From Lytechinus pictus (lineage: Eukaryota): a stretch of DNA of 64,000 nt. Below, piece by piece: positions 9,053-62,967 of this stretch. Within the stretch, counting starts at the first letter, position 1. The number at the start of each line of letters is the position of its first letter. The notes under the pieces are model-generated. The model saw only the letters and a program-made list of their open reading frames with translations. It was not told the DNA's origin and did no database searches. Position numbers and translations under genes: made by a program. The stretch is taken from positions 1,614,001 through 1,678,000 of the forward strand of contig NC_087252.1 of the NCBI RefSeq assembly GCF_037042905.1, written 5' to 3'.

Positions 9053-13590
<4,538 letters not shown>

Positions 13591-20589: not shown

Positions 20590-20802
20590 TCAATTTGAAC
20601 TTCCCGTCGGATCGATTCCCGCCTGTTGTAACTGTGCTCTCAAGAGGGCGTTCTCTCCTTTGACTTCCTCAAGCTGCTGTCTCATGAGTTCAATGTCGAC
20701 GGAGAGTCTCTCTGCGTCCTTCAGGCTCTCGGCCATGCGTGTATTAGACTGCCTGAGATCCTGGATGTAATCGCATGTCTTTGAGAGGATACCTCCTTTA
20801 CT
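20590..20802 (-). CDS. USF: USF exon 8, helix 2 and leucine zipper to the stop codon
   Basis: SKGGILSKTCDYIQDLRQSN...ENALLRAQLQQAGI; 213 nt. Confidence 0.97.
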   Translation of the reverse strand, partial: SKGGILSKTCDYIQDLRQSNTRMAESLKDAERLSVDIELMRQQLEEVKGENALLRAQLQQAGIDPTGSSN

Positions 20803-23800
20803 CTGTAGTGAAAGGAAGAAAAATTCAACCAGTAAAATGGCACCCAAGAGCGTTTGGAAGGTACACGTATATCATCATTTCGGTTAATGTATAGTTACAG
20901 AGGGATGATGGAGGGGGCATTTTGAAATCATAACCATATGAATTTCTCAAAAAATGCTGACAAAATTAGAAACAAATAGATCATAGACAATTCGTATAAA
21001 GAAGACGTGAAAATGTCCCATGCACCCCCTGTGTCTCCTTCCTCAGCTCCTCTATCATTTCACCCATATGCTTTTATAAACAACCAATATGCCAAAGATT
21101 ACCTACCTAATGCTTTTGGGTGCCCTTTCCCAGGTAGGAAATTTGGTGTTTATAAAAAAATAAAAATAAATGGCGTATCTAGTCCTTCCCCCCCCCCCCC
21201 CCCCCCCCCGAAGTGTGATTGTTATCAGGGTTGGGGGAATGGGAAATATTGGAGGTGAATTCTCCATACCACCTCAATAATTTTTATTTTCTTTAATATT
21301 TTCAGGCATTACCAGAGTATTCCTAAAGCATATTCTAGCATTTTCCAGTACCTCCCTGCGCGAGAAATGCTTGAATTTCCCTGAATTGCCAACTATCAGA
21401 AACCCCAATGCATACTAACCTGGCCTTGTTTGGAATGATCTATGTTGCAATCTGGGATGATTTTGGATAGTTTGACGATCCAATTGTTGATTTTATCTCT
21501 TCTTCTTCTTTCTACCTCATTGTGCGTGGCTCTCCTCCTCTCATCCCGCACTGTTCTTGCACTGTCCACCTTCCTAAGATGGTAAATATTAGGTAACACA
21601 TAATCAAGATTGGTGATCCCATATCATTAACACTATAAGTACTTACTTATTATCATTATCCTCATCCCTATCATCATCATCATCATCATCATCATCTTCA
21701 TCATCATCATCATCAACATCCTCATCATCATCATCATCATCATCACCACCACCACCGTCATCATCACCACCACCAGCATCAACATCCCCATCATCATCAT
21801 CATCATCATTATTCTAGGAACCAAGGTCAAACAAATCTCGTTCATCAGCAATAACCAAAAGTTCCCGGACGTAGCTCACGCCGTTAACTTGTGCGTCCCA
21901 GTAACTTCCAGTAGCTTGAAGTTATGAATAGTATACAGCAAGAGGGATAACACGAGTAGCAAGTATTATGTTGATTCCTCCTCGAAATGAAAGAAGAGAT
22001 TAAGGACATGGTGTGAAAGCAGATGCGACTAGACTAGCGCTATCCTCAGTACGAGTAGACCGAATGTTGTTAGGTCAAACATCATTGAACTAAAAGTAGA
22101 GTTTCTAGTTCAGCGCAAAAAGTGAATGGTGAATTCACACACTGCAAAAACTCTGGTGTTGATTTAACACCAGCCCAGAATCTATATATGTCCACACCAA
22201 GAAGGTGTTAAACAACACCAGGTTCGTTTTGGTCTAACACCAGATAGGTGTTTATACAACACCAATTAGTATCCAAACAGCATCGGTTTGATTCCAAACT
22301 GGTGTTGTTTCAATACTTCTCTGGTGTGGAGAGATATAGATTCCGGGCTGGTGTTAAGTCAACACCGGAGTTTTAGCAGTGCACCATGAGCTACATCCGA
22401 CAACTTTGGGCTATTGTCGATAGCTATCTTGATGGTAGTGGTAGAGAGCTTACGTATTGAACTGGTGTGTCCTTGGTGCTATGGTTCTCTGTGATGCTCC
22501 CTGTAGGACATCTTGAGGTGACATCATCACGTAAAACTGACCTGCAAATTGGCAACACACGACGGCGATTAGTCAGAGTCTAATGGGGCGTTGCAAGAAA
22601 GTTACGTTGCAATTGATCGGAGGACTTACGCTCGATTTGCGTTCAATTGCAAGTTTCTTGCAACGCCCCATAAGACAAAGAAATTCATTCATCTTTAAGC
22701 AATGCAGAAAAACAAATTAAAGTTAACATTGGAGGCTATGTGACTACAGTTCCTTTGGCATTATGTACAGCATACAGAAAATGTCCCAAATCAAGAAATA
22801 GAGTCAATTTTAAAAAGAAAATCAGTGTTGCTTCCTTTTTGCCAAGGGACTGTGTCCGCATCACTGACTTTCTGTAAGGCGTCCTTCATGTTATACTTAC
22901 CACCTGACGAACCTGTTGGCTGTGCAGCGATCCCAGGTTGTTCCCCACCGCTAGCCGTCCCTCCACCATCGCCACCCATCGTTGATGCCGCAGGAAAGTA
23001 GGTGAATCTTGTCTCTCCTCCCTGGCTTTCACTCGTCGGACTCTCTCCATTGAACGACCCCTGGATGACCTGTGTCAAAGGTCAAAGTTGAAAGGGTAAC
23101 AGATAGACAAAAGATAATTCTGTGTCAATAGTTCATGTATTAAATAGGTAGAAAATAATTACTGGAATGTTTTGGGTATTTTTTTATCACATTTATTGCA
23201 GTTGAGAATGATACATTGCTGTACATACACTGTATTGCAAAAATATCTTAATTCCTAAAATGTTGAAAATAAAATGCTAGTGGTTTAGATAAACACTGTA
23301 CATGATGAACTTTCGAGATGACTCTGCATATATACATGTACATGTATAATTCAAAGCATTATTCCAGACAGAAATATGCTAATCATATCTTATTTACATC
23401 TTTTACTTCAAATTTAACTTTAATTTAATTAGTAGAGTTGAATTAGGCCGAGTCAAATGCATTACAGTCAAATACATATAGAGGTAGTGATAAGGAGTGT
23501 ACAATGGTCATATATACATGTTTGGTTTATGATTAAAATTTTGATCACTATCACATTTAATACAAGAGTCAAACACCTATGAGAGTTAATATTATTGAGA
23601 ACTACATGTATATTTAAAGTAAATTATTTACACAATTTCATAACAAAACTCTTTTTTAATTTCAATAATTTTTTTTCTCAAAATATGGAGGTTCATAAAG
23701 CAAGCGATAGATCTGTCCAAATTGTGAAAAGATTACAGTTTAACTGCCTTCTTTCAAATCTTGCACACCTTTTGAAAGCATATTCGGCTATTTGCTACAC

Positions 23801-25505
23801 AGAATTGCATTTGTAAGTGCATGCTACACCAGAAATTGATCAAAAACATATTTTTATGTTCAATTCCAAAGCAAATTTTGTACTAATTAGAATTCTTAAA
23901 GTAGCATTATTAGTGATAAAAACATTTTTGGTGTGGCCTGGAAAAATTTAGTTTGGTTGGAACTCCCTTTGAAACTGGTTTATCTCACCATAATTCCTCT
24001 TTAAAAAGCATAACTGTATAAATATCAATTGTATTCACACCAAAGCATACATGTAGCAACATATGCATGTGCACTTTAATAGACTCTACCAGGGGTGTGA
24101 GTGGTCACAAATAAAAAGATCAGAAAAAGTGTTGAAAAAGTCTGAAATAGAAAGAGCTCCCATACTTTTTGTACAGAGGAAGGCCAAAAATAAGCTGAAA
24201 TTAAGCTGAAAATCAAAACAAAAAAATCTGAAATCAGATAAAAATCAGAACTCTCACACCCCTGGACTCTACTTCAATTACATACAGTATAAGTACAAAG
24301 TATTTCGCACGTGTACTGATTGTAAAACACGATTCCACTGTAAAAGGATAATTCACCCATTATTACTTCAGGAAGGATCCGCCCTAGGCTCATAATGCTC
24401 CATTCACAGACCAGTCTGATGAGAGGTCATGTGATTTGTTGTGTGAGCAGACGACATCGAGTCAGCATATTTACTTTTGAACTTGAATACACATACATGT
24501 AGTAACCTACTTTATTAATGTTATAAATCTAGCAACAAATTGCCATGAAATTCCATGGCATATTATTAGGGCCCCCTCATTTTTGAGGGGTCAATAAACT
24601 ATTATTAAAGGTAAAAGAGAGTAGTTGCAGCAAACAATGATTTCATGAGGAGTCTTTTATTGTCAAAATATTATCATACAGTACATCTAGATCTGGTACA
24701 TTAATGTAAACTTATCTTTGTAAAATCATGAAATCTTAGCTCAAAATCGATAATTCTGATGATCACTAACACAGAAAAACATGTGTGGGACAGTGTATTA
24801 ACATGGCTTCGAAAAATACCTGATATTTGATGGAATTCTGTGCTTAAAAATTTCTCAGCAATTATAAATTTTTTCCCCTTAGCTATTTGGTGCATATTTT
24901 TTATGCATACAAACGCTTTGGTGGGAATTTTATTGGATTCTGTTCAAACTCATTTTGAGATCGTTAGCACAACTGGTAGTTACCTTAAACTTGCTTTTTA
25001 AATGTATTCCACAGATATTGATCATGTATGATGATTGTTTGTTATCTTTAATCATGGCAAAAATAAAACAATTCAAGTTTTTTATGATCAATCAAATGAA
25101 TTGTAAAACTTTTTTCTGTTGAAAATGAAACAAATAAAACTTTGAAAAAGAAAAGGATTGCGTTAATAGTAAATGGTCACAGTTGAACTTACCTTTAATT
25201 TAAAAAAAAAAAATTTCAGTGAACTGTTTATGGATGATTTTCTTTTTTATTTGACAAAGTAAATTGGAAATTGGACAAAATTGATATTATATGTACATAT
25301 CAAATGGGTTTATCCCATTATCCCATGTAGTTTTAGACTAAATGTATCTGATAAGTAGACTGCTTTTAGATCCAAACATTATCATCATCACCATCATCAT
25401 CATCGTCATCATCATCATTATCATCACTATCATCACCATCATCATCATCATCACCATCACCATCATCTTCATCAACATCATCATCATCATCATCCTCATC
25501 AACAA

Positions 25506-25538
<33 letters not shown>

Positions 25539-28500
25539 ATCATCATCACTGACCTGTGTCAAAGCTTGTTGTCCCTGGGGGAATGTCGTCACAACGGCTT
25601 GCGGGTTGGCTTCAGTATCTCCTACCTGAACCACTCGGTATGTTACCTGGCTCTGTCCATTGCTGTCTGTACGGAACTGATACTGTGGGTGAAAAGAGAC
25701 AAATACAAGAGAAAAAATGAGATGAAGATTTATGTAGCACAGTGAAGTAACTCAGAATAGGAAAATCATCTATTCTGTAGGTGGGAAGAGACAAAACTGA
25801 CAAATACAAGAGAAAAACACCGGAGCTAAAGGATTGTGTAGTAAAGGAAAGTCACTTTATAGAAGTGATGAAAGTATATGAAAATCAAATGTTTCTATAG
25901 TCAAATGTTAAAACCTAATTCATTAATTAGGATTTTCCCTTAGCAGTGTAGCCCCTCGAATGTCTATTGTGAACTATGCATGTATTACATGTACATGTAC
26001 CTAACTTTTTTGCTGAAATTCCTTCTCTCTTTCTATTTTTTCTAAAGCGCTTTATAGAGAAACCTTTGTGATAAAGTGCTAAACAAATACTCTTAATCGA
26101 ACTCCCACTGAAATTAATTATAATCCAGTATCGAGACAAAAAATAATATTTCCAGCATACAATTAATAATTTGCAGCATTTCTAAAAACTATTTTAGTTT
26201 AAAAAACTAATGCACATAAAGATATTTGAAGCAAATCTTTTCAACAAATCTACTCAATTTGAAAAAAAAAATGATTGGCATTGTTGTGACATTACGACTG
26301 AGTTATATTAAAATATCTAATATAGTAAAGCATAAATTACCTGGATATTCTCAGCAAATGGCCCCTCTCCACTGGGGTCTGTAACAACCTGATCTCCTGT
26401 AGGTAAAATATAATATAATTAGCAGTGGGCTATACAGTGGTCAAAATAACCTTCTTCATAATTTTTACTAAGGGAATAGTTTTTTTGTGTTTCTTTACTC
26501 AACATGAAATGACATTATTTTTTTCTCAGGTGCCTAATGACTCGAAATTACAATCGTCCATACATGTATGCCGATACCTGATATTTGATAACCACTACCG
26601 GTATTTCATGTATGAAGGCTTTGTGGAAAAGAGGCTTATAGAATATACAGTTTGCATAATTACCTTGAAAATTTAAAATCTCAACCTTATTTAAGTTTTT
26701 GATATAACATGGCCAAAGTTCATTGACCCTAAATGACCTTTGACCATTATCACGTCACCTGCAACTTACACGTTCAGATGGTCAATGCTACCTGATTCCC
26801 CTTAAATCTAAGTTTCATTAAAAAAAAACCTTCTTACTTTTTATGTTATGATGAAACTTCAAAAATTTAACTTAGGTTAGGATTTCAATATTGATACCCA
26901 ATACAGTCTATATTGTAAGTTCATTGACCTTGACAATGTGACCAGAAACCCTTGCAAGATTATCAGTGATCCTTGATTACCCTAACGAATAACTTTTGTG
27001 AAATAGGTCCATATCATAATTACATGTAAATTTCAAAACTTAACCTTGGTTAAAGGTAAATTCCAGTTCTGGTAACGATCTCAAAATGACTGTTTACAGA
27101 ATCTAATATAATGACCACCCAAGTGTCTGTTTGTATGAATAAAAAATATGTGCCAAAGGATTCTGGAAGAAATTGTGTAATTGCTGAGAAATAAGCAAAA
27201 TAAGCGCGGATTCGGTCACTTCCGTCGGGTCTTTATTCCAGCAATAATAATACACTGTCCCACGTGTGCCTATCTGTGTTGGCGATCTTCAGTGTGATCG
27301 TATTTCAGCTTAGATTTTATGATTTCACAAAGTTCAGTTTATGTAACTGTACCAGATCTAGATCCACGATGATATAGTCATACTTAACCTTGGTTTTACA
27401 GACTTTCTCACGAAATTAGTGTTTTACTGCAACTACTGTAATTTAGCTTTAAGAGTTCAATTTTAAAACCGCCGCCATCTGAAAAGTGGCATCTACAGTC
27501 TGTTCTGGTATGCAGGCCAGACCAATTTTAGAGCAAAGAAAAGAGAGGAGAAAAAAGAAAAATGTAAAAAGAGGAAAAAAAAGAGAGGCATGTGCTGAAA
27601 CTGTATAATACCCCTAAAGCTCCCCCAATCATGTTTCTATTAGTAAAAAAGGAGGAAAAGAAAAAAAAAAGAGTAAGAAAATGAACTATATTTCTTACCA
27701 TCTGCTGTTAGATGTACTGTCACTTCTTCGTCTAAATCTTTGTCCTTGTCTTGTGGTCTGCAAAAACAAGAAAAAAAAAGACAAAAAATATATTATCCTC
27801 ATATCAAAATTCAAAATAGACTATCAAATCATTTGATTTCCATTGTGTATACTTTGAGATTCAGTTTCGGTTTTGTTTTGCTTTTTTATTTAAAGAGCTC
27901 AACAAATGTAATACACATGAATAAAATTGACACAATCAACGGAGAGAATACATTAAATGCATGATAGTCAAGAACTCACAGAAACACATACCACATGCAT
28001 GTAAACTGAAATAAAACTTAAAATTCAAGAAATCTCTTCAAAAGCAGAGCGATGTAGATCAGATAAATGACAGTCACTAGTGTACAGATCTATGGGACTA
28101 CAGGGGGGGGGGGCAACTCCATGTACCCCACCCTCAAAAAATAAAATCAATGATGGGGGGGGGGGAGGGGGAATTGAAATGTAGAAATAAGGGAAATAGA
28201 AAGGAAAAGGTATTTAATAACCTGAAAATGATTGTTTAACTCATGTTAAACTCTCACCTTATTTGTGCAATATCCAAAGAAACCACTTTGGCCATTATTC
28301 AAGACATGAAGCAACCAAAAAACAATGATTCATAAAAAGTGGATAGATCCGAAAAGTAATCCAAGAATAATTCCAAATTAAGGTTATTCCAAAGTTACTG
28401 TACTCTACTCTAATACCATAAAGCATATCACATCAAATAGCATCTATTTACTATAAAAATATAGCTTTCAATTTTCTCATCAGTGAATAGAGTCAAGTAC

Positions 28501-31500
28501 TTGAATGCCATGAAGAAAACTGCAACGCTAGGAAAACAGCAAAGAGGAAAAAGTAAGGAGAGAGGAAAGAGGTTCGGAAAGTTAGCCATAGTCATGTGAC
28601 CTAACTCACGCCAGACGGACACGGGGGCATTTTACTACGACTATTTATGAATGAAACCATTTCAGGTACTATCGACCGAGGAGTGAAGTCTTGTGAAATC
28701 ACGTCCCCTTGGAGATCAAAATTGTCCGCCTCTTAGAGTTTGCTCCAAGGTCGACTTGTGAGACAGATCAAAATGCCTGTTGTTTTTAAATAAACAAAGG
28801 CTGTTTGTGTAAACCTGAGAACTTGTCAGAGGCTTGAAAAAAACATAGCAACAGCTAGAAAATTGATTCTTCTACAAGCGGGTAAAGGGAATCTGACCTC
28901 TCTCGTTTAAAGAAAGAAGCATCCTTACATTTGAATAAGCAGGCCTATTCGTTTAACATAAAACCATGGAACACATTAACCCTTTAAACACTTCCCTACA
29001 TATTACTGGGGGGAGGCTAAATCATTTAGCCCCCCTCCAACCTATCCAGTAAAACAATGTCCATTATTTTGTTAGACATGCCGAGCATTCAAGTAGTCTG
29101 GAGCCTGGTTAGAGGGACTGTTTCCCAGATGACAGGGGGTTCACGTTGCACCCAGTCATGGGGGCTGAACGTCACCCCACGAGGCCGAGCCCACATGACT
29201 CGACATGATTGGCTACGAGGGAACAATAATAACAGCATCCTGTTCTTAACTTGGTGTTAAACACGATGGATGTTACTTGGTAATTATTAGGGGACCGGTG
29301 AAGAAGGGATAGAGATATTTTATACTCTCTTTTATTTTAATGAATACATGTACTCTCTGTTATTTCACCCTCAATTTATTTTCCAATCACCTTTTTTCCC
29401 TCTTTTTTTGGCTTCGTTTGATTTTAGTCTTTTCTATTTATATTCCTCTTGTAACGTTTTTTTTCTGGTAACAAGGTGCTTCTTTATTTTATGTAATGAA
29501 CAATTATTCTGTTTCATATTTCATTGCTTAAGGTTTAAACACTTATAATGTTTCTCCAAATGGGAGGCTAATTTTCTACAAGCTCTGCTTTTAATAGGCT
29601 ATGCCACTTTTCTTACAACCTGTGCTGTACCTTACCATGTTAAATACTTCAATTGAATTTGAAATGCAGGGGAAAAAGTCACACGATGGCTGGGGCAATT
29701 TAACCCCGAAATGCGGAGCACTGGCAACTAAAAATGGAAATCCCCATTCATTGCAATGCTAAAGCTTATCCAATGCTAGGCAGTAGGTTGTCAAAAGTAA
29801 ACTCCCCTCCAAAAAAAAATTGTAATAATTTCTGCTTTTTTGAAATGCTATGTATTTGCTATTTGTCAAAGCGGAAGGAAAATATGTGAGGAACAAAAAA
29901 TAAATTCAAGACTCATTATGAAGCTGCATGTTTCACAAGCATTTTACTCACATAGATTCTTAATGTTCTATAGGAGTATGTTTATTATTTCGATCAGATT
30001 TAGAGCACATTCTCGGTAAATTTAATTGTTTATCACTTTTCTACAAATTTATAAAAACATTTTGTGAAACAAATCTTAAAAATTAGTGATACATTCAGTG
30101 TGTATATCAGAAGTGAGATGAAGATTTTATTCTGAACTTTTCACTTACATTTAATTAAGGTCTTATGTTCTTTCCTATCAAAATAACTGTATCATTAAAA
30201 TGAATACTGTACATGATGCACAGAGCTGCCAAGTTGTATTTTGCATTTACAGTATTCTTATCCCCCAAAATCAGTATTTTGACCCAAAAAATCAGTATTT
30301 TTACCGTGTGAGATAAATATTGTGTATTTTTCCCCAAAAAAGTGTATTTCATAATAAAATGCTTGGCGCACTCGCCCGTCACGGCGCTCAAGCTGCATGC
30401 AAGCTAAAATGCGCACTGCTCTCGCAGATGAAAAAAAAAAACCATTGAAACTTGTGTATATCTCACCCTGGTTTTAACAAAATGATTGAAAAAAAAAACA
30501 AGTTACCTGAAATTACATTGATCTAATAACCATATTTGTGTACGTTTTATGAAATAGAGACGTACTAAATACGGCTAAAACGTAGTGGTTGGCAGGTCTG
30601 GATGCAGTTGAACAAACATGCACATGTACATGTAGGTTGAACAATCACTAATGCACAAGCCCTACAGAGCAGTTTAAAAAGTTTCAAAATGAGCACTTGA
30701 GCTGAAAGGGGAAATGGATCAATTACAGACAGAAATGAGTTGTTAATTTAAGTTCATTATCACTAACTCACTGTTTTTCCTTCGTTGCATGTACATTTAC
30801 GTATATTCTCTTCCCCTCTCTGAACTTCATTTCTCTTGCTCTCTCCAATACACTCTGCCCTTCCCTCATTCCCTTCTAATCTTCCTCACCACCTCTCTCT
30901 CTCTTCCCAATTTCCCCCAATGATCCCTCCTAAACATTCCTTCTCATGCAACCTCTCTCTATGCCACCTTCACTTCACTCTCTTTATCCATTCATCTACA
31001 TGTATCTCTCCCTCCCCTCCTTTCTCGATTTGTTCTAAAACTCCCTCCCTCCATCCATCCTTCCTACCTTCATGTTTCACTCGATCCTCCCTCCATCCAA
31101 CCATCCCTCACTCCATCTACCCCTCCTTCACTCCTCCCTCCCTCCCTCTACCCATCCATGACTATCAGACCAGTATCCATCAATCCACAATATTTAGCAA
31201 TCCACCCCTCCCTCCCTTGATTCATATCCAACCATCCCTTCATCCATCTACCCATCAATTTATTCACCCCTCCCTCCCTCCATATTTCATCCATCCATTC
31301 ATCCTTCCATCAATTCATCCATCCACGCACCCATTCATCCCTCCCTCCCTCTGTCCCCCTATTCATTCATCCATCCACCACTCCATCTATTCATCAACCC
31401 ATCCACCCGTCCATCCCTCGATCATCCATTCCTCCATCTATCCATCTATACCGGTATATCTGTCTATATATATCCATCCATCCATCCCTATTTAAACTAC

Positions 31501-36707: not shown

Positions 36708-36810
36708 GTGGTTGAAACGTGTGGGAAAGCAAAAACGAATCAGGATTTCTAGCGCTAGTCACGGGGCCAAACAAGTTGGTCATGTGAGAGAAAGATTGAA
36801 CATGTGACAA
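36701..36810 (-). promoter_or_regulatory. CATGTG E-box cluster at the USF 5' end
   Basis: CATGTG at 36705, GGTCATGTGA 36778-36787, CATGTGAC 36801-36808. Confidence 0.4.
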
Positions 36811-37137
36811 TACAGGCCTTCAGCATACATTATGCATACTGTACATGGCATTATGGCGACTTCTCTCTCGGGCCGGCTAGCTAGCTGTATTCATGAGCAA
36901 AGTTCAAAGAGCAGGGCGTTTCGTTTTCCTTCGTACCCCCTCCCCCCCCCCCCACCACCACAAGGAGCGGTGCCTTTTTCAACAACAGTCTGCTAAAAAA
37001 AAAAAGAGAAAACAGTAATATTTTCCTTTATATCTTTCGAATTATCCTTTATTTTCTTTAGATATACCGGTATATGTTGTTTATCTTTCTTTCGTTTTAT
37101 TTTTCCGTGCTTAACTCTCAGTTTCTCTCTGTCTTAA

Positions 37138-38278: not shown

Positions 38279-38320
<42 letters not shown>

Positions 38321-38910: not shown

Positions 38911-38911
<1 letters not shown>

Positions 38912-38993
<82 letters not shown>

Positions 38994-39000
38994 TCAATCA
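38912..39000. repeat. (ATCA)n microsatellite, possibly a retroelement tail
   Basis: Direct inspection. Confidence 0.9.
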
Positions 39001-49700: not shown

Positions 49701-52700
49701 TCTCCCTTGTTTTGCATGTGTACATTACTAGTATTACTCTTCCAATTTGTCATCACGATGAACGTTGAGGGATTTACACCAAAAAACCCGGAACATGAGT
49801 TATAATGAGGAGACATCGCCAGATGCCCCAGTAGCATAAACAAATTGGTATTTTATTATTTTGTATACTTAATATTCTTTATTTTTTCTTACTATTATCC
49901 TCACCATGGTGGAAATTATATGGCTATATCAAGAAGCTCCATGCAATGACTAAAATATCGGAAATTGTTCGATGTTTATATAACAGTCGACGTACCTTCC
50001 CCATAACAACACTCGGAAAAAAAACTTTCGAAAAAGGGCGCGCCCAATTTGACCTCGCTTTCCTGCTCAACGAAAATTACGATGCGAAGCCAGCTGGAGA
50101 TCGTGATTTCGCCTCTGAAAAGTTAAGCATAAACAGCACTCCCAGAACCACGTTTACGATCGGCGTTTTGAATCGACGTTTGAAAACGCTGATTCTGTCC
50201 TCGCAATGGAAGCATAAACACACCCTACATGTAAGTGCCCCTTTGCCTGTGGCCTTAATGTTGTATGGTGATCTATCAAATTCATGTGCTTCATTGATCA
50301 AGTACATTTTACTATTGATGCTCTTTTTGGCCTTCTATGCCCCCTAAAGTGACCACTGCCTTCCCATCCCATTTATTAAAAAAATGCCCTTTGAAAAAAA
50401 TCTTTGCCTATTTGAATTTTTCATTCGAGCCCTGCTCTTATATCGTGGTACATGTAAAAAGCACATACACATCAATATGGTTGTGTCGATGCAAGAATGC
50501 CCTTACCACTTGGGGAAAACTTGCTGGAGGGCTCGGAGCAATATCACCCCCAAAATGCTCATATGAGGCCTGGAAACTCCAAGGAGCACTGGAAAATCCC
50601 CAATCATTGCAATGTTAAAACTTATCCAATGTTATTATTATTATTTGTTTGGCGTCACCTGTGCCTGGGAGGCGAAAAGCGAACTGAATCACTATGACCC
50701 GTAGGTCTCTCCTCCCTATAGATATGATTGGGGGGAGTGCAGGTGGACCACTACACCGGGGTTTCCCCCTACTCTAAAACGAAGCAGTAAAGTTAAGCAG
50801 TAACTTTTGAAAAGTAGCCCCCAAAAATGAATAATTAATTTTGTGCCTGCTGACTGTACCACCACACCTTCACACATTGCATGCGCGCGAAAACACCCAG
50901 CATGCATAAGTGCATTGCAAAAGGGCATTCTTGCACTGACATGACAATGTGCGGTTCCCTAGACCCTTCTTTTCACACTGCTCGATAGATCATGGTTCCC
51001 AAGCAAGACCCCCTGTTTACACCTTGCACTCGAGGTCCTCCCCCCCTTCATGCCAAAATATACATGTAATTCCAGGGTCCCGTCTTACGAAGAGTTGCGA
51101 TTGATCTGATCAACCACGATTATGAAAAGCCAGCAACATCAACATCTAAAATATACCTGTATGTTTGTTCTAAATATTTTCTTGAAAATTGTCTATGTTC
51201 TCTTTGTCTTCAAAGGACATTGTGCAAATTACCTAAAGAAAAAAATTGATGGATTTTCATATACTTGAGGTTGATGATTGATCTGATTAATTGTAATTCT
51301 TTGTGAGATGGGTCCCAGTTTGAAAGCTTAGGATAGGCCTTATTAACCTTACAATGTATTGCTCAATTTGTTCATTTCAGATACGGTTCAAGCTGCATTA
51401 TTGACCATCAATGCTGCTGGTGCACTAGAAACCACATTTGATACGTGTACTTCAACTGATATTGAAGGGTGAGTAAGAGATATTTCTCATCGATTTTTTT
51501 TAATCAAGTTCAATCAAAGGAATTGTATGATTTTATGTGTTGGGCCAAAGACAGAGCTGTACAGAGGCCACTCAGAGATCACAAGCCCCTGCACTACTGA
51601 TCATGCACTGATCGTATGATGCTTACATTGTTTGATACCCCTGAGCTGATTAAACAAGGACCAAGTGCTGATCATATAATGCCCCTACAATGTGTTAAGG
51701 GCTGTGATCTGTATGATTTTGAAACATTTGTGTAATGCCATGCTAAACATGTGAATAGATTCGTAGACCCTACAATGATCGTTGAATCATCATCTCTCTA
51801 TGATTGTAGACCAAATGTAAAGGGGCTTTCAGGTCTTTTCTGATATCACATCAAGTTGGTTTGGATTCTTAGAGATAATAACAGGCACAACACAAGAGTG
51901 GTCCTCAAAATTGGGAGCATTTCAACAATGTTTGTCACCTGACATGTCAGATCTGACAACTTTCCTAGATCTTGATTGGCTGAGAAGCACAAGTATTGTA
52001 ACTAGGATAAAACTGGGGGTGTTTCATGAAAGTACTTGTTAGACGTTTATCCGATAAGTCCTATTTTATCCGACAGTTACCATAGTAACAATGCCTCTCA
52101 GCCAATCAAGGAAAGATGTCAGATCTGACAACTTCTTGGACAAAAATGTTGCTGAAGCGCTCCCCTGGGGAGTGTTCATGAAAGGACTAGTCGGACGTTT
52201 AATACGACAGTTACCATAGTAACAGTGCCTCTCAGCCAATCAAAATCAAGGAAAGTTGTCAGATCTGACAACTTGTCGGACAAAAAGGTTGAAACTCTCC
52301 CTAAGACTTGTTTATTTGTCATGTTAACATCTAACAAGCTATTTATGAAACACCCCCCTCCCTGATGTAAATTACTCGATAGTTTGTTTGTTCATGTATG
52401 AAATACAAAGATGTTTTTTTTAAATTAACGTTTTAGATTTCTTTTTCTCATACGATTTATCTGTTTTATTTTATTTTTTTTAAACAGGGAGGATGTGGAG
52501 AGGGTGAAGCGTAAATCGCACCATGCGGAGATTGAGAAAAGACGAAAGTCAAAACTCAATGAGGGCATCAACAAACTCATTGACATTCTCCCAAAACAAG
52601 ATGCCAGAAGAGTAAGTTACTGTAAACTTGATTTGATTCTGATAATCCGCACACCAGACATGCGTCATCATTTAAATATATAGAAATATATCAGGCATCG

Positions 52701-55700
52701 TGAAAGTATAGTTGGAATTATTTTTCAGAGGTTGGTCTGGCAATTACTCTTTTTCCCGAGGGGCGAAGCCCCGAGGGAAATATAGTAGTCTTGCCAGTCC
52801 AACCGAGGATTAATAATTCCCACTATTCTTTCAAAGGAAACGGTTGATATATTTGATTTTATCCTACTTTTAATAAATTGAAACAAAAATCTTTGCGCTG
52901 AGCTTTCAGAGTCCGCTTACTTGCACTGAATGAGCAACTTTTCCTGAAGTGCCATGCTCAGTGGAATGCGGATTTGTGCCTGCGCTGATGCATCACGGGA
53001 CTTGCTCAGGAGCGAAAGCTCGCTGACCGACGCGCCCGAGAGATAGGCTTGATATCCAGTTTTTCTTAAATATTGACGTCAGAATATTGGTATAGCAAAA
53101 AATATATCTAGGTCTGACATCACACAACATCATAGTTAGAATATATTTGGTCACATGATGCTATTTGAACCAATCACCATTCAGGATTTAATCTACGATG
53201 TATGTGGGATATTGTTCTACAATGTACATGCGATTTGTACGGTTTATACTGATCTTCATGTGTACATGTAGTTGGTCTTCATGCACTCAAATAAGTCTTT
53301 ATCACATGGGCTAAAAGAGCGATTTGATCTACAGTGTACTATCAATTTTGTCTACTTGCTGATTAGAACACAACACTTGTTCTGTAGCCTACATTTAATT
53401 CTCATTGAGTCTATTTCCCAGTTCAACTAATTTCTACTTCATCTACTCAATACTTTTTTCATTTTGTCAAATGAGAATTGGGTTTAACAGTTCATCTATA
53501 TAGACTATAAAGTTTAGACCAAGTGGATATCAGACAGAACGGCCTGAATTTACAAAGGTTGAATCCATGGTTTAAATGCAGAATTCCTGTATAAATTACG
53601 CTTAATTTAGCGCGTGTAGGGCGCATGTATAAAAAATGTCCAATGCTGATGCGCGCTTTTGTCACAGTGTGCCAAATTGATGCCTGTTGCCGTGGTTATC
53701 CACACTATTTTATTAATGAGTCCATTGTTTTGAATTAATGAGTCCATTGTTTTGAATTAATGAGTCCACTCTTCAAACAGTGGACTCATGAATAAAACAG
53801 TGTATCTAACCATGGTAACATGCCTAAATTTGGCGCACTGTGACAAAAGCGCGCATCAGCATTGGAAATTTTTATACACGCGCCCGATACCCGCTAAATT
53901 AAGCGTGATTTATACAGGAAATCTGCATAAACCATGGATTTAATGGTGGGTTTTCAAAACCACCTTTGTGAATTCGGGCTATAGGATATAGCATATATGT
54001 ACATGTATAAACTGGAAATTAGTCAAAATGAGGTGAAAGAAAGATGCTCTATTCAACGAGGCGTTAGCTGAGTTGAATAGAGCATCTTTTTCTTTCACCG
54101 AATGCGAAATCTTGCACCATTGCACGAATAAGAATATTCGCTATTTGCGTTGTGCAACGCCTCAGAGTTTAGCGAAAATATGAAGAAAAAATAATTTTTC
54201 CCTGAAGTAATCATGAAAAGGGAGCAAAACTATTGAATGCAAAAAGCGAAATTCCACAAGCGCAAATGACCTCTGGCAGTATTGCGCATTCAATCAGCAG
54301 GCTATACGCGTATTTCACCCTCATTTTTTACTGAGCGCAATGAATTGAATCGTATTATGACGTCACCTCCTAAAGCCGTGCAACGGTACATTTTGGATGG
54401 TACGTCTTGTGTGCAACGGTACGAATGTTTGACGTTCAGCCTCCCATTTGCTCGCGTACAACAAGCTAGTGTTGTACAATGTAAAATAACTCTTGATTTG
54501 AATTATTAGAGGTTACAAAGGAATGCAAAGCAAATGTAATTAATTTCCATTTCTTTTTTTTTGGTACATTTTCCTGATTCCAGAGCAAAGTACAGATCCT
54601 TGAAGATACTTACAATCTGGTGGTTGAGCTTCAGAAGAAATGCCAGCAGCTTATGATCCAAAACGCACCAGAATCAGAAGGTAAGCTTTAATATTGATTG
54701 ACACTTGAAAGCCTAGTCAAAACAAAAAGTTCTTTTGAACAAAAAGCAATAAGAATAACACTGACAATTTAATCAAAATGGGATATGAGCAACTAAGTTT
54801 TGACAACTTAGTTTTTCTTTCTTTTCAGGGATGCCTTTTTGCAGACTAAATTCTGAGTTCAGACTTTCTCAATATATTTTCCACCATAGAAAACAACGTT
54901 TTCATGTAGGCAAGGGGTCAGTTATGAAAAAAAGCAATAAGAATAACACTGACAATTTAATCAAAATGGGATATGAGCAACTAAGTTTTGACAATTTAGT
55001 TTTTCTTTCTTTTCAGGGATGCCTTTTTGCAGACTAAATTCTGAGTTCAGACTTTCTCAATATATTTTCCACCATAGAAAACAACATTTTCATGTAGGCA
55101 AGGGGTCAGATATGAAAAAAGCAACAAGAATAACACTGACAATTTAATCAAAATGGGATATGAGCAATTAAGTTTTGACAATTTAGTTTTTCTTTCTTTT
55201 CAGCGGTGCCTTTTTGCAGACTAAATTCTGAATTCAGGCTTTCTCAATATATTTTCCACCATAGAAAACAATGTTTTTATGTAGGCAAGGGGTCATTCTA
55301 GATGATTTTCAGACCTTTTTTTTTAATCAATTCTAATTGGCATCCCTGTATTTTACAAGACAGTTTTACAGTGCAGGTGATAAGAAAATGAGAATTTTAC
55401 TCATAAGCTGTATGATAGTCTGGCTTACCCAATTTGTGAGCGTCTGAGAATTGTCCTTTATTGCCCTGCTCATCGGCCCGATTTCTTTGATGATGACACC
55501 TCTGTACAGTATGTCAACAGACTTCTCATTGTACATGTATGCATTTGCGTAGAAAAGCTTCATTACTTTCTTATTTTTCAGAAAATAAGTCAAATCTTCA
55601 AAAAGGACTGGAAAATAACATTGAAATCATTTCCTGCGCCAATTGATAAAACCTTCTGCTCTAGAAAATATTTCTGACAGATTTGCCATTTGTCTTGTGT

Positions 55701-58700
55701 GCCGGTTTTCCTTTGTATCTTTCATTCAAATGTATTACAAAGTTTGTCTGATATTGCACTTTTGTCTGACATGTCAGTCACGACCAATGTAATGCAAATA
55801 AGAACCAAACAAATTACAAATAGTATGGTCTAGAGCTGTAGGTTTCTATACATTGAAGCACTAAATTTTGATACTGTTTTCCCCAATATTCAAATTTCTA
55901 ATATAGAAAACTAAAAACTCAAATTTTCTACATTTACTAAAACATTCGATTATATAATTGTATACAATCACACAAGATGATGTCATAGAATCCTGGCCGT
56001 TGTATGAAAGTACATGAACTTTCATGTAGCCAATATTGCTTGTCAATTCAATTTGCTTCTAATAAGATCTTTGAGCATTAAATTTCAAGTGGATAAGATT
56101 CCATTGAAGAAGCTTGAATTTATGATTTCATTAGGATACAATTTACATTCAAGAAATACAAATATATGAATTTTTTTTTTCTCCTCTGCAGTTGATGAAA
56201 TCAAACGTCTTATGGAAGAGAATGCCAAGCTGAAGAAGGAAAAGGAAGACTGGTCGGAATTTCTGAAAACCATGAACATCAACACTGACATTAAAACTCA
56301 CATGAAAGCTGTTATGCAGGGTAAAGGAAAGAGAAATTACAAATCGGAACCCCCTCAAGAACAGCTGTTGGGGAGCAGTCAGAACTTAGGAGCCGGTCAG
56401 AACATTATCATCCAATCTCCTACAACTGCAGTCATGGGTTCTCCTAACCTTGTTACAATGCCTACGAATCAGATGACGATACCCATCGCGAGTGGGAACA
56501 GGATGGATGGCAATGTCATGCAGGGCGGAGGTAATCAAGGTGGAATGCTGCTTGTGACTACAAGCAGGTCAGGAACCGATTCCAAGCCATCGTTGACCTT
56601 AGCAAACAATCAAATCAATGTGGTTGGCAATGAAAGACCAGAAGCGGAGGGACAGTCGCCGCTTCCAAAGCCGGTGGTCCAAACTGTAGAAGACAATGTT
56701 GTGTCTGCCACGAGCCAAGGCGGGCAAGGCATCTCGGCAATTACCTGCACGCATGAAGCTTCAAATCAGAGCTCTGTGGGACAGGTTAATACAACAACTG
56801 CAGAATCAAAGAATACCACGGCTGTAACACAGGTCATAAGCACCCCGATCACCACACCAGCATCACAGAACCAAGTCCTCCTGCAGTCTGGGACAGGGGG
56901 TGGTGTGAGGATAGTTCAGCAACCACCAGTCCAGTCGCAAGGTCAGACTGTGCTGATCCAGTTACCTGGTCAACCTGGGCAGTATATCCCTGTTCGAATC
57001 GCACCACAGATGAATCAGCCACAGCAGGTGATCCTTACCTCTCAGCAGGGCGTCAATGTCGTTGGGACTCGAGGTAGTGCAATCCAACCCAAGACTCCAG
57101 TGAAGAAGAAACAACCTGCACAGCCAAAATTAAAGAACCTTTGCCCTCTCCCACCAGACTCCCGTAAGCCAAACTCTCCCATAGCCTCCCAATCCAGCGT
57201 GCAACCAATAGCTCCTAACACTGTCACTGTGAGATTACCGATGAACCCTACTGCCAATCAACAAGGTACGGTTGTGATGACCAGTCAGGGTCAGGTGATC
57301 CTCCAACAGCCTTCAAATACGATCCTTTCAGGTGGTGTGAACATGCAAATGCCCATGCAGGTGGTCCCTAAACCTCCTGTAACTCAGAACATTGTGTACA
57401 TCCAGCAGAATGGACAACTCATACCTGTCATCTTGCAGCAAAACCAGAGTAATGTCCAGCAGGGTGTTCAACAAGGTGTGCAACAGACGAACACCATTAT
57501 TCAACAAGGTCAGCAGCAGCAACATCAACCACAGCAGCAGCTAAAAATGCAGGGGTCTGAAAGTATTGCCTCGCAACCTGTTCAGTCTGCTGCCACAATG
57601 GAAAGTGCTGGCAACCAAGTTTCTGCATCGGTATCTGGAGCTGCCGTTGCCTCCGGCGGCATTGCCATGACCCAACCTGCTCCTATTGCTTCTAGCCAGG
57701 CACATCTATTAGATGGTAGCACCATCCCAGCATCTTCCTCGTCCAAGGTGGTTTCAAATTCCTTTCAGGGTAATGACCTGATGACCTCTCTTGCCATTGA
57801 AACCACATCAACTCATATTGATCAAGGAAGAGGGCAAGGAAATAGTGGCTTTGCTGCAAATGACATCCTGGCCAAAGCAACCGAGAGCATTTTCTCCACT
57901 CATTCTGAGACATCTCCCATGCAACTTGGAGATCTGCATGATTCCCATGGTCATGCAGCCAATCAGTCAGTGATCAAAAACACAAATGGAATATTCGGTC
58001 ATCAAACAACTCAACCAGGAATCGAGATCTATGATCTCCCAGATGAGATGGATACATCCTCCAGCAAGGGCAAACACAAGAAGAAAAAGAAGAAAAAGTC
58101 AAAGTCCAAAGAGAAAGAAAAGAAAAAGAAAGACAAAGACAAGGATAAAGACAAAGATAAGGAGAAGAGTAAGAAAATAAATTTTCCTTTGCCTACTGTT
58201 CCAAGTTCTGATAATAATGCAGATATTGGTGATGATCAAGAGATGGCTACTGAAGCATTATTGGAGAGTCTTATGCAAGAAACCCTGGGAACAGGAGGCA
58301 TTGATGATAGTAGTAATACAGAGACTGTGATGAAACTTTCCTCAAATCCATCATTACATAGTAATATCCCAGTGTCATCGAATGGTAATGTCCAAATTTG
58401 CAATTATTCAGCAGCAGCCTTATTGAACTCAAATACACGGGAAACTTTAGCAGGGAATCAGAATAATACAACACAAGTGTCGTCTGCCACTGTTTCGTCA
58501 TCAGAAACAAATGGGCAAGCAATCTTCAGTTCATTCAACGACATTCTCAGCAATTCAATGAGTGTTAGTGGCCTTCCAACATACATAGATGATGAGGAAG
58601 ACATAGTTCCTGGAAACAACTCTCGTGAAGGCCCACCCTGTACATCAACAGCCAGTGAGGACGTCCCAACCTCATTATCTGTTGTCACATCAAGCGCCTG

Positions 58701-61700
58701 TACTCAGAACCAGCCAAGTAATTCATTGTCTCTGTCATTGCCTCAGAGCACAGATAGGATGATTCCAATCGAACAAAAGACGCCAGATTCATCCAAAGTA
58801 GCAACTACGCCTACTTCTGATGGCTTCCAAAGCTATATGTCACCTACCAGCTTCCCCTCGATCAGTAGCCTTTTAGAGCAAACTACCAGTGCAGAAAGAG
58901 AGGCTTCCATTTCATCACTTCCATCAAGCACACAAAAGGATGATTCTCCTACAAGTGGATTTACACCATCATCAAGTTTACCTTTCCAACATGGCTGGAT
59001 CTCACATCACTCCAAAGCTTCAGAGTTAGCTCGGGGAATACAACCAGCGAAATCACATTCTCCAGTCAGCACACCCTCCCTGATGAGTTCAACAAGCACA
59101 GCGCTGGCTACATCCACAAGCATGGCTGTGAGTACTTGCCCATCTGTAAATATCTCACCTCCAAACACGTCATTGCAGAGTTCAAATATGGGTAACGGAA
59201 GCAAATCTTCACCTCCACTTAACCTCCTCTCACAGCCTTGGTTGAATCCCTCAACGGATAACCTGTCAGATGCTGCAAGCCAGCCAGACTTGGGAAGCAC
59301 CAGCTTGCAACAACAGCAGCAATTAGTAGATATTCTCCAAGGATTCTCTGGCACCAAGGTGTCTTTAGCCTCTCAGGCCAACACAGAGGTCATGTCAAAT
59401 ACACAGGATATTCATAGTTCCCTACCCAAGTCCCAACCCTCACTGGAATCATTGTTTGGTTTGCCTCCCTTTGGTGAAACTCGACAGAGCACTCAGACGG
59501 TGTCAAATGGGGATCCTTTCCAAAGCATTTCAAGTATAATAGATTCAAATAAGACCAGATCCACTCCCGTCACCAGGGACAATTTCCTAGGACTTCCTCC
59601 GTATTCCATTCAAACTACTACTAGTTCTTCCGCCCCGGTTATGGAGCAGACTTCAGTTTTCCAAGAACCTCCTCTAGATCAAAGCAGGCATTCATCTTCT
59701 AGTAGTTCATCAAAGCCAAGTAATGCACCACCAAGTTATTCGCTGATAAATCGGGTGACAGCTGTAGTAGATAAATACAATGAACGGAAAGCCCCTACTG
59801 CTGCCAAGAATGTTCCGAAAGTGCCTGACATAAATCATGTAGAAAGCAATCCAGCAAATGAACAAGTGTTTGAAAATGTAACCCAGGAGAAAAATAGGAC
59901 TGTTTCCGAGATTGGACCAGTTACCAGCAATAGTCAGAGTCGCTACGTTCACCCAAAAAGCAGAGCATTGGCATCTGTTGCCATGCAAGAATCCTCTCCT
60001 GCAGTTCAAACAAATAGCAGTATGTTTGGTGCAGAAAAATTTCCCTCTGTACCTCAAGTGAAGCAAAGGAACACTAATCAGAAAAATGTAAATCCGAAGA
60101 AGTCTCAGTTACCAGTGAAAAACTTTTCAACGGCAACTCTCCATAGAACACTTACTGCTGATATTTCAGAAGAAGGTGGCTCGGAAAAGGACCAGAATGA
60201 GGAATTGGTAGCCCCCTTGCAGCCAGAACCACCACAGGAAGCATCCCAACAATTGCCATTTATTACAGTACCGGAGCAGCCTCAACATCACTCACAACAG
60301 CCTGCTGTCCAGTGTGTACAACCTGAGGCATCAGCTCCACAGCCGTCCACCAAAACAAAGAGCAAAGGTTCAAAGAAACGACAGAAAGAAAAGCCACCAA
60401 TCGAACCTCCAAAGCCAACGGATGAAGATAGTGTTGGGAGGAGAGAACTTGACAAGTCTCTAGTCAATAGGTTCCCTTGGCTTGCTGAAGCTAATGGAAA
60501 GTCGGGTGATAAACTGGCAGGGGGTACGAGCCAACAGACAAGCAATACTAATCCATCAGCATTTAGTGTCCAGAGCATCTCCCAAAGTTCTTCAAAGAGC
60601 TCTCTGCCGAAGTCTAGAGGGAATCCAATTCGTGCAGAAGTTGTCCAGAATCCACCTCCGTATCCTTCAAGATCTCCTGCAGTTTCAGCAGATTCTCACA
60701 ATCAATCTCTTTGGAATCCCTCAAGTTTTGATTCTAATCCTCCAGTATCTTCCGCTTCATCTTCAATGATCTCCCCCAAGCAAACCTCACAGGACAGGAC
60801 TCAAAGGCACCACCCCCTCAGCTCTGCTGATCAAAGCCATCAAAACAATCCAAATTCCATGAACACAACTCTACAAAATAGACAAAGTACTGGAAACAAT
60901 AGACCTCCAATGTATCAAGCATCAAGTTCAAATGATGTCCAGGCAGCTGTCAATGCTGCAGTCAACAAAGCAACACAGCAGGCACTTCTAGCAAGAAGCA
61001 TGGCAGGAAATCCTGCAGTTCCAGAGAAGAGCAGAAATGTTTCTTCGACGAAGAAAAGTTCACAGCGTCCAAAGGCCGGGGGTCCTAGTCAGATCTTGAG
61101 ACAATCAGATATAGATGATGGTCTTGACTTCTTGAACTCTACATCGACCAGTTCTAACTTTCCAACCTCATTGTCCTCTGTCAATATGGATATTTTTGAT
61201 AATTCCTTGGGGAGTTCCTCTATGATATCTAGGCCGTCTGAGCAACCTAGCCAACGATCTGGAGGTCGATCACGACCTGCAGACAAGCAATCCAGAGTTG
61301 ATACCTCTAATCCCAACACTCTGTTACAAAGTGACTTTTCTAGTGTTCCCCAAGATACATTCTCATTCTCACAGTGGAATCTAGAACCTCAACAGACTGA
61401 AGATAGGGAAAATGCGAGAGGTAATTCTCAAAAGATGCAAGAACTTGCTTCTCCCCCTATGCAGCAAATGCATCAACGTGGAGGTAATAACTGTGTGAAT
61501 GTAAACTTTGGAGATTCCTCAAATCTTGGGTCTGGTGATGATCTAGACTTCTCAAGTTTGCCTTCCTTTCCATCTAATCAGCAACAGCAGCAGCAGCACA
61601 CTCCATCTGATAGACAGACTCCTCAAAACCAATCCTATTCAGTACCAAGTGGAAGGTCTAGTGTGGCATCTATGGAACCAAGTCCAATGCAGCCTAGTCC

Positions 61701-62967
61701 TATGAATTATAATGTACAGGAAGGTAGCCATATGTCACAGATAAATGAGATGCCACATTCAAACTCTAGCAGTAGAGGTCCTCCTAGTGTTGAAACTCCT
61801 TCTCAGCAGCAGAGGAGAATGACACAGTCTCCTATGGTTCAGAGTAGCCACCAAGGACAAGGGATCAAGAGAGCAGCTACAGATGGGCATCACTTGAATG
61901 TGGCCAAGAAAGCACATGGTGCGATGCATTCTGGTCGCAGAGCTACCCAACAATCTAATCCTGAGTCAAGGCATCATTCTTCCATGCACAATAACCCACA
62001 GTCCCAAGGCCACAGCAATTTAATGCAGTTTCATTCATCCACTTCCAATACGCCCAACCAGTCATCTGAAAGTGTCTTTGCAGGCGGGGAAGTCCAGCGA
62101 ATCACGTACCCATCACAAGGCGGAGGCGGGAGAGTACAAGAAAGCAGTCGAACCAAGAAGCGAGCCCCAAACCCTTCAGACAGTATTTTTGCTCGGGATC
62201 CGCACGAGATTGATGGAACTCGCAGTACGTCCGTATCTCTGCTGCAAGATAACTGGTTTGGTAGTTCAGCTCGCATAAATACAACTAGTAGCAATGAGAC
62301 TGCACCACCGACATTCCTGCCCAATTTCCCCAGCTCTCAGACTTCCCAGGGCCAATCGGAGAGTGTTACATCATCTTCGTCCACTAGTTCATCTCTCATT
62401 TCAAACATCTCACCTTCTCGACGGTTGAGACAGAACGAGATGCCCACCTACCTCCCGTCCCATCTCCCAGGACCCATTCTTCCAAGTCCTCCACAAACCA
62501 AAGGAAGTCATACGCGGGAGACGGACATCGCTTCCTTCAATCCCATGTTCACACCTTCCCGGACAGCTGGCATTCACAGCATGACTGCCAATTTCCCAGT
62601 GTTTCACGAGCACCAACCTCCAGGCGGCTTCAACATCGCGAAGTCCAACCAACTGCCAGGTAGTGTCGCCCAAACCCCTTTCAACTTCAATAACATTTTT
62701 AATGAATCCTCCCAAGTGGCCTCGAGCACTCATGTCACAGATGCTCAAACGTTAAACCACAGCATTGGCTTGACCCCAACCGTCCACCTCCATGGGAATG
62801 CGTCGCTGCCCTCGGAGGAAAGTGTGCTTCATGGGAACATGAGTCAGAGACATCCTGCTCAGCCGTTTGGTCTGTTGGCTCAGAATCGCCCACCGATGGG
62901 AGTCCCAACGCCGATGGGTAGGCCTCACCATCAGTTTCATAGCTCTTCTTTCATGCACCACTACTGA
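43691..62967 (+). CDS. USF3: USF3/KIAA2018-like large bHLH protein, join(43691..43724, 51381..51468, 52488..52611, 54584..54680, 56192..62967), 2372 aa
   Basis: Exons total 7119 nt and are phase-consistent. N-terminal bHLH (HHAEIEKRRKSKLNEGINKL..SKVQIL), then a coiled coil (DEIKRLMEENAKLKKE..EFLK) and a >2200-aa Q/S/P-rich region in one giant terminal exon. This matches vertebrate USF3 architecture. Confidence 0.85.
48203..49263. mobile_element. TIR element (TAGGGACAGTGATTTTCCG) with an apparent 6-bp TSD TCTGTG, containing a nested SINE
   Basis: 19-bp perfect TIRs; TCTGTG at 48197-48202 and 49264-49269. Confidence 0.82.
48431..48735 (+). mobile_element. tRNA-derived SINE with CORE-like domain and (ATT)n tail
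   Basis: A box TGGCCCAGTGG, B box GGTTCGAATCC, second copy at 4717-5003. Confidence 0.88.
49427..50225. mobile_element. TIR element (GTGTTTATGCTTCC ends; PIF/Harbinger-like)
   Basis: Inverted termini; internal repeats of AGAACCACG(A/T)T. Confidence 0.7.
51381..51468 (+). CDS. USF3: USF3-like exon 2 (NTVQAALLTINAAGALETTFDTCTSTDIEG)
   Basis: TTTCAG acceptor, GG|GTGAGT donor, 88 nt, phase 1->2. Confidence 0.75.
52488..52611 (+). CDS. USF3: USF3-like exon 3, bHLH basic region and helix 1
   Basis: KRKSHHAEIEKRRKSKLNEGINKLIDILP; long T-tract + CAG acceptor; GTAAGT donor. Confidence 0.92.
53541..53980. mobile_element. Long palindromic MITE
   Basis: ~200-bp arms are reverse complements; central 23-bp tandem duplication. 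Confidence 0.8.
54584..54680 (+). CDS. USF3: USF3-like exon 4, helix 2 (SKVQILEDTYNLVVELQKKCQQL)
   Basis: SKxxIL helix-2 motif; TTCCAG acceptor, G|GTAAG donor; 97 nt. Confidence 0.92.
54741..55295. repeat. Tandem repeat, 3 copies of ~187-188 bp, in USF3-like intron 4
   Basis: GCAA(T/C)AAGAATAACACTGAC starts at 54746, 54934 and 55121. Confidence 0.92.
56192..62967 (+). CDS. USF3: USF3-like giant terminal exon (6776 coding nt)
   Basis: CTCTGCAG acceptor; phase 1 joins the 2251-aa ORF 56212..62967; K/D-rich NLS-like tract; Q/S/P-rich. Confidence 0.95.

Follow-up and report, generated by a model that had tools for sequence, protein, structure and literature searches.

A divergent USF-USF3 gene pair in the sea urchin Lytechinus pictus, probably retained from an early local duplication

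Two genes of the USF family of basic helix-loop-helix leucine zipper (bHLH-ZIP) transcription factors stand head to head in the genome of the sea urchin Lytechinus pictus, which raises the question of whether they are the descendants of an ancestral duplication that never parted or paralogues brought together later. We examined the window around them, a stretch of 64,000 nucleotides (assembly GCF_037042905.1, contig NC_087252.1, positions 1,614,001 to 1,678,000 of the forward strand), in whose coordinates all positions are given. The minus-strand gene is USF, the pro-orthologue of USF1 and USF2, and the plus-strand gene is identified below as an orthologue of USF3 (KIAA2018). The explanation that we favor, at a probability of roughly three in four, is a local duplication before the origin of the bilaterians, with adjacency kept in deuterostomes and dispersal in vertebrates. 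The linkage of the two genes is real, ancient and apparently unreported; both transcription factor families were already known. Their structures are as follows.

20590..36707, minus strand: USF gene (USF1/2 pro-orthologue), a product of 299 aa from 8 coding exons, C-terminal bHLH-ZIP
36707-36676, 27757-27699, 26396-26341 and 25682-25554, minus strand: USF coding exons 1-4
23069-22901, 22541-22454, 21573-21420 and 20802-20590, minus strand: USF coding exons 5-8
21420..21573, minus strand: USF exon 7, encoding the basic region, helix 1 and the loop, with a phase-0 end preceding SK
20590..20802, minus strand: USF exon 8, helix 2, leucine zipper and stop
43691..62967, plus strand: USF3 (KIAA2018) orthologue, a product of 2,372 aa from 5 coding exons, with an N-terminal bHLH-ZIP ahead of a long low-complexity tail
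43691-43724, 51381-51468, 52488-52611, 54584-54680 and 56192-62967, plus strand: USF3 coding exons
52488..52611, plus strand: USF3 exon 3, encoding the basic region (which contains Lys13), helix 1 and the loop, with a phase-0 end preceding SK
54584..54680, plus strand: USF3 exon 4, 97 nt from phase 0 to phase 1, encoding helix 2 and the hinge
56192..62967, plus strand: USF3 exon 5, 6,776 nt, encoding the zipper, the Q/S/T-rich tail and, near residue 2278, a conserved aromatic motif of the C-terminus

All seven USF introns and all four USF3 introns are of the GT-AG type. The joined USF exons form an open frame of 299 aa, the product being identical to the RefSeq protein 'upstream stimulatory factor-like [Lytechinus pictus]' (P0173) and 90% and 96% identical, respectively, to USF of Strongylocentrotus purpuratus (NP_999818/Q07956) and Lytechinus variegatus (AAA66098); its C-terminal bHLH-ZIP carries His5, Glu9 and Arg13. 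The 2,372-aa USF3 product is identical to XP_063959409.1 (P0001) and contains a single HLH domain by Pfam (PF00010, residues 49-99). The start codons at 36707 (minus strand) and 43691 (plus strand) are divergent, at a distance of 6,984 bp, and enclose 6,983 nt. An earlier note on this DNA, made from the sequence alone, had described divergent USF-family genes about 7 kb apart, each with a phase-0 intron directly preceding the SK of helix 2 (QGQ/SK in USF, ARR/SK in USF3); the gene models and the RefSeq-identical proteins agree with this in every respect. The two proteins can be aligned over the bHLH-ZIP only, with 27% identity over 97 aa, and DNA similarity between the gene regions is limited to repeats. 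For the zipper exon of USF, a match to a Pfam toxin family stayed below threshold (19.7 bits, cut-off 25) and was rejected as a chance coiled-coil match. USF3 intron 4 contains, at 54736-55295, a 188-bp unit repeated three times in tandem, the copies being 96% alike.

The first step is the identity of the large gene. Judged by sequence, it is the USF3 orthologue that the earlier note had suspected: tree support, Lys13 in the basic region, a common exon end and a common C-terminal motif all argue for this assignment. A word-based search with the bHLH region retrieved only two proteins among 62 candidates. A giant-exon search, in which 7,998 candidates were scored, identified four other echinoderm proteins of 2,233-2,765 aa, and an echinoderm-only bHLH profile built from these relatives was searched against 1.84 billion representatives. 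Outside the echinoderms, the first matches are proteins of about 2,000-2,400 aa with an N-terminal bHLH, followed by USFs and Cbf1-like proteins, and the top 150 matches are of these three kinds. Profile members that were looked up are named USF3 in a bird and the annelid Lamellibrachia, and USF3-like in hagfish, amphioxus, Ptychodera and a spider. Further USF3-type members come from a scorpion, a sea spider, a millipede, an abalone, a snail, a bivalve and Montipora corals. The family extends through vertebrates, amphioxus, hemichordates, arthropods, molluscs and annelids, and probably corals. The vertebrate matches share the layout of the window protein, an N-terminal bHLH-ZIP followed by a low-complexity tail of about 2,000 aa.

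In an IQ-TREE tree of 58 hand-picked rows and 103 columns, the USF3 group has a support of 96/85 (26 rows) and the USF group 95/89 (23 rows), the latter uniting the minus-strand gene with USF1 and USF2. The window USF3 nests with the Ptychodera USF3-like protein (100/97), and an outgroup-free tree separates USF from USF3 at 99/95. The echinoid USF3 domain sits on a long branch (0.66) and has Ala in place of the usual Asn after His5. The basic region, encoded by exon 3 (52488-52611), evolves faster in echinoid USF3 than in that of starfish, brittle star and crinoid.

Three further signatures of USF3 were derived within the present analysis. Among 144 rows that remained after short or badly matched ones were removed, basic position 13 is Lys in 64/64 of the USF3 clade and Arg in 69/69 USF and 11/11 outgroup rows. 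Exon 4 of the window gene ends 32 codons beyond SK. Of 13 truncated USF3-type models from other taxa, chosen by hand, 11 are broken off in the alignment column of this exon end, which points to an intron common to the family. At the C-terminus, an FN/S-F/L-x-I/L-F motif is present in 16 of the 26 long proteins examined, including those of sea urchins, vertebrates and arthropods. An echinoderm C-terminal profile matches amphioxus USF3 at 25.7 bits, compared with a shuffled maximum of 2.4; the link between vertebrates and arthropods is weak (10.6 bits against 3.3 for shuffled sequences). The coral USF3 branch is shorter (1,033 aa) and without hinge or C-terminal motif, and an origin before the cnidarians is therefore likely, if less secure. 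We also considered whether cnidarian USF3 retains a remnant of the USF-specific region and rejected this, as none of 13 scored N-termini beat its shuffles.

Annotation has masked this family. RefSeq names XP_063959409.1 'serine-rich adhesin for platelets-like', a label from composition only, and the same name on echinoderm USF3 proteins (P0001, P0005, P0156) hides the family from name searches; one amphioxus annotation calls USF3 'USF2' (P0034). The possibility that amphioxus USF and USF3, both labelled USF2 in one annotation, share a first exon was rejected, as their N-termini differ.

The second step is the age of the linkage. In other species it was read from the order of accessions and the equal sizes of contigs, not from coordinates, with L. 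pictus as a positive control; here the USF accessions XP_054760232/235 bracket USF3 XP_054760233. Both genes could be placed in eight other deuterostomes and five protostomes, and about 20 species with a single placed gene were excluded from the counts. Consecutive accessions are found in three of the eight deuterostomes: L. variegatus (XP_041471082 vs 080-081), the brittle star Amphiura filiformis (XP_072049123-125 vs 122) and Branchiostoma lanceolatum, where two independent annotations concur (CAH1261798-805 vs 797; XP_066282445-448 vs 441). The two genes lie on one contig in 7/8 other deuterostomes and in only 1/5 protostomes. The additional same-contig cases are S. purpuratus, Ptychodera (49 accessions apart) and two species of Diadema, D. 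setosum and D. antillarum. In D. antillarum two contigs, of 1.3 and 2.4 Mb, each carry both genes, at distances of 13 and 23 accessions, respectively. Non-consecutive accessions are not proof of separation, as L. variegatus carries a second USF copy and USF3 fragments about 945 accessions apart on the same chromosome. These extra copies, a low-quality USF and two USF3 fragments (P0293, P0157, P0159) on the chromosome of the intact pair, probably represent a duplicated haplotype of the locus. A metagenome scan kept 80 USF-related loci, among which none of at least 2.5 kb carries a USF together with a USF3-type domain, most contigs being too short to tell; two of the loci are coral-type USF3 transcripts.

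The earlier note had read the pair as a retained ancestral inverted duplication. For deuterostomes its ancestry part is well supported by the consecutive accessions, and recurrence in several deuterostome assemblies speaks against the lineage-specific juxtaposition or misassembly that the note had named as a refutation. Its other refutation, a grouping of the large gene with another bHLH family, was not seen in the tree described above. The inverted arrangement is at present known from L. pictus only. Beyond the deuterostomes, the bivalve Tegillarca is the single one of the five protostomes with both genes on one chromosome.

We propose the following history. A single proto-USF gene would have been duplicated locally before the protostome-deuterostome split, and probably before the cnidarian split; sister paralogues that are adjacent, with orthologues of both across the protostome-deuterostome split, argue for such an early local event. 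One copy would have remained USF, short, with a C-terminal bHLH-ZIP and Arg13. The other would have become USF3 by acquiring an N-terminal bHLH-ZIP, Lys13, a hinge preceding the zipper, a low-complexity tail of about 2,200 residues and conserved C-terminal motifs. The copies were presumably neighbors in the deuterostome ancestor and appear to be so still in sea urchins, a brittle star and amphioxus, having been separated in several protostomes. In vertebrates, the separation most likely came about by whole-genome duplication and reciprocal loss. Human USF1, USF2 and USF3 lie on different chromosomes, USF3 being unlinked to the other two. Their regions share paralogues of nectin, ARHGAP30-33 and ILDR/LSR, which would fit reciprocal loss after genome duplication. 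Among the papers listed by a search on a 1q23/19q13/3q13 paralogon, none concerns USF by its title.

The SK intron had been taken by the earlier note as a mark of kinship. It is indeed old in USF, being present in 11/14 metagenome USF loci with the motif. However, it is weaker evidence than implied, since several group-B bHLH families have a phase-0 intron within about a codon of this site. A second basic-region intron, just before VER, was observed in several USF loci (L037, L064, L069, L070, L075) and apparently also in a vertebrate USF3 model (P0037); neither sea urchin gene has it.

A number of observations weigh against this history. The sister relationship of USF and USF3 has a support of only 94/46 in a tree without animal MITF, SREBP, Max and Mlx, and the tree holds no cnidarian USF. 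With outgroups, the approximately unbiased (AU) test did not reject a duplication confined to echinoids (p=0.055). The Lys13 count is partly circular, that column being part of the tree alignment. C-terminal profiles of other groups did not report L. pictus USF3 (P0001), and the vertebrate C-terminal profile matched no echinoderm, the link going by way of amphioxus and arthropods. Adjacency in other species, read from accession order, is silent on orientation and distance. The Acanthaster genes are on separate small scaffolds (311 and 354 kb), those of Tegillarca are 212 locus tags apart on their common chromosome, and USF and USF3 of Uloborus are on different chromosomes. The pairs of Lingula, Crassostrea and Biomphalaria are on different scaffolds, provided that the gene catalogued as 'MHLH1' is USF3 (see below); with the same proviso, more than 139 kb of Lingula scaffold upstream of each gene lacks the other.

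How might the pair have stayed together? The region between the start codons contains the following features.

36708..43690, no strand: intergenic region between the divergent genes, 6,983 nt, repeat-padded, in which no gene was found
37131..37735, no strand: inverted-repeat (miniature inverted-repeat transposable element, MITE-like) element of about 600 bp, intergenic copy 1
42132..42739, no strand: the same MITE-like inverted-repeat element of about 600 bp, intergenic copy 2
36779..36808, no strand: pair of E-box-like GTCAYRTG sites upstream of the USF ATG, at a distance of 70-100 bp
43484..43537, no strand: pair of AAGATGGCG motifs upstream of the USF3 ATG, at a distance of 150-200 bp

In keeping with the earlier note, no gene was found here: none of the nine longer open reading frames (ORFs) tested matches Pfam at E<=0.01, and neither an Rfam family nor an ARAGORN tRNA was detected anywhere in the window, though small or non-coding exons could escape these searches. 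About 1,724 of the 6,983 nt are found a second time in other parts of the window, and the region holds two copies of the 600-bp element and several tandem arrays. Copies of this element at 7495-8104, 34694-35310, 37131-37735 and 42132-42739 are 77-82% alike, with long terminal inverted repeats and TTAA at each end; the element is possibly of piggyBac type.

The GTCAYRTG sites, which we take to be of USF type, could be autoregulatory, although the cue is a weak one, as the motif is common here (17 window matches, 6.8 expected). The motif AAGATGGCG, presumably that of YY1, has three window matches against 0.30 expected, two of them close upstream of the USF3 ATG. This pair suggests a promoter of USF3's own close to its transcription start site (TSS). 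The third match, at 35719-35727 (minus strand), falls within a CpG-richer patch of USF intron 1, about 1 kb from the start of the intron. Genes sharing a bidirectional promoter have divergent TSSs within about 1 kb of each other. Given the AAGATGGCG motifs near one ATG, the E-box-like sites near the other and the repeat-padded gap between, a common bidirectional promoter looks unlikely, and these cues suggest two separate promoters, one per gene. Both USF and USF3 of the window keep His5 and Glu9, so that both proteins should bind E-box-type sites as dimers, and in the history proposed above they are probably E-box-type dimeric transcription factors, each under its own promoter. Lys13 may change the read-out of the central bases.

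The likeliest of the other readings is an addition to the early duplication and does not replace it. It holds that the genes share regulation, through common enhancers or a bidirectional unit, possibly with unannotated 5' non-coding exons, and that their products cross-regulate or heterodimerize. The adjacency apparently kept since the echinoderm-chordate split would be explained, and the E-box-like sites upstream of USF are consistent with the idea. Likewise, the two L. pictus USF accessions that bracket USF3 encode the same protein, and 5' variants may exist. The oyster gene that we read as USF3 is broadly expressed (PMC5381572). However, a stretch of 7 kb that has taken up repeat insertions separates the ATGs, promoter-like motifs lie separately close to each ATG, and the linkage was lost in several lineages. 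For heterodimers, the comparison of zipper registers is unfavorable, the USF3 zipper being one residue shorter with a Gly/Pro hinge, and among the papers listed by a search none deals with a USF3 heterodimer, judged by titles and term counts. We regard shared regulation as unlikely. A bolder version, which we hold to be distinctly doubtful, would make the pair a head-to-head regulatory module kept for more than 500 million years by shared cis-regulation. In it, a long-tailed Lys13 USF3 would cross-regulate or heterodimerize with USF and so shift E-box read-out, and USF3 would be an overlooked eumetazoan bHLH family ('MHLH1/LcleavHLH', perhaps 'peridot') whose link to USF was hidden in vertebrates by reciprocal loss following genome duplication.

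Alternatively, the products of an old USF/USF3 duplication may have separated and then been re-joined in the deuterostome stem, by a rearrangement within a single ancestral chromosome. The absence of adjacency from all five protostomes, with the Tegillarca genes on one chromosome but apart, fits this order of events. However, a gene is unlikely to come to lie beside its closest paralogue by chance, and loss of adjacency in protostomes is simpler; we consider re-joining improbable. It is very improbable that the large gene is a member of a different group-B bHLH-ZIP family (MITF/TFE, SREBP, Max or Mlx) and that the neighbors are only distantly related. The omission of the animal members from the tree and the low sister support leave some room for it, but the gene groups with named USF3 proteins and the top profile matches are of USF3, USF and Cbf1-like type. 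Additionally, the closest solved bHLH structures are USF2 (88 bits) and USF1 (75 bits), against 53 for Max and Cbf1, which places them 23-35 bits above the next family; a second PDB ranking has the same order, with a lead of 8-13 bits. A recent inverted duplication within sea urchins, or an assembly artefact, can be set aside despite the AU result with outgroups, as the paralogues are 27% identical over the domain compared with 89-94% between each and its S. purpuratus orthologue, the AU test without outgroups rejects an echinoid-only duplication (p-AU 2e-6), the genes resemble each other at the DNA level only in repeats, and the linkage recurs in independent assemblies of several species.

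To the left of USF, four coding-looking minus-strand ORFs (9056-9526, 3129-3419, 692-1018 and 13237-13683) had no Pfam match at cut-off. The first begins with a kinase-like stretch, for which ESM Atlas gave only weak kinase-fragment leads below 0.8.

USF3, a poorly understood human transcription factor, can now be seen as an old animal-wide family with a probable origin and a diagnostic DNA-contact residue, Lys13. Sea urchin and amphioxus each have a single USF next to a single USF3 and offer a simple system for testing what USF3 does and whether the two genes are co-regulated. Old linked paralogue pairs are common in slowly rearranging genomes such as these, which makes the finding moderately surprising.

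The vertebrate protein is the closest known system. Window USF3 resembles USF3/KIAA2018 in its N-terminal bHLH-ZIP, a length of about 2,200-2,400 aa, Lys13, the same exon end after helix 2 and the C-terminal aromatic motif; it differs in the long branch and the Ala after His5 noted above. Human USF3 binds an unmethylated CpG-containing motif in electrophoretic mobility shift assays (bioRxiv 10.1101/2024.11.11.619598). Its function has been called unrecognized, and the gene has been linked to thyroid cancer predisposition (PMC5351935). For sea urchin USF, cloned cDNA and protein records exist (S. purpuratus, L. variegatus), and the retrieved material mentions no USF3 neighbor. Nor did we find a published report of the linkage in the literature searched, from which subscription journals are largely missing. 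Orthology of invertebrate USF3 is not new in databases, as RefSeq already has several USF3-like names.

Earlier catalogues appear to contain USF3 under other names. The gene 'peridot' was reportedly described by Gyoja in 2012. Its range is given as cnidarians, amphioxus and hemichordates, with loss in humans (PMC5064789, PMC4083563), and overlaps that of USF3; likened by description only, it may be an earlier partial account of the family. One USF is listed for most invertebrates (PMC1828162), and motif searches of the supplements to that article matched no USF3-type gene; in the bHLH catalogue supplements examined in this way no gene is labelled USF3. The single Ciona Usf has been mapped to USF1-3 (PMC7693978), and the three human USFs have been given as two USF2 isoforms and USF1 (PMC5381572). 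The latter source also describes MHLH1/LcleavHLH as specific to molluscs or lophotrochozoans. Compared by eye, mollusc proteins of the USF3 clade are closely similar to the MHLH1 sequences given there for oyster, snail and Lingula, and this supposedly lophotrochozoan-specific gene is likely a USF3 orthologue.

The pair itself is best compared with Amber-Neurogenin and NeuroD-Ptfa, which are ancient linked pairs of bHLH paralogues (PMC5381572). By accession order and shared contigs, USF and USF3 show one of the features used there to recognize ancient tandem pairs, with evidence from echinoderms, a hemichordate and amphioxus and with divergent orientation seen in the L. pictus window. Unlike those pairs, USF-USF3 belongs to group B, persists in deuterostomes and not in lophotrochozoans, and joins two proteins of very different domain layout.

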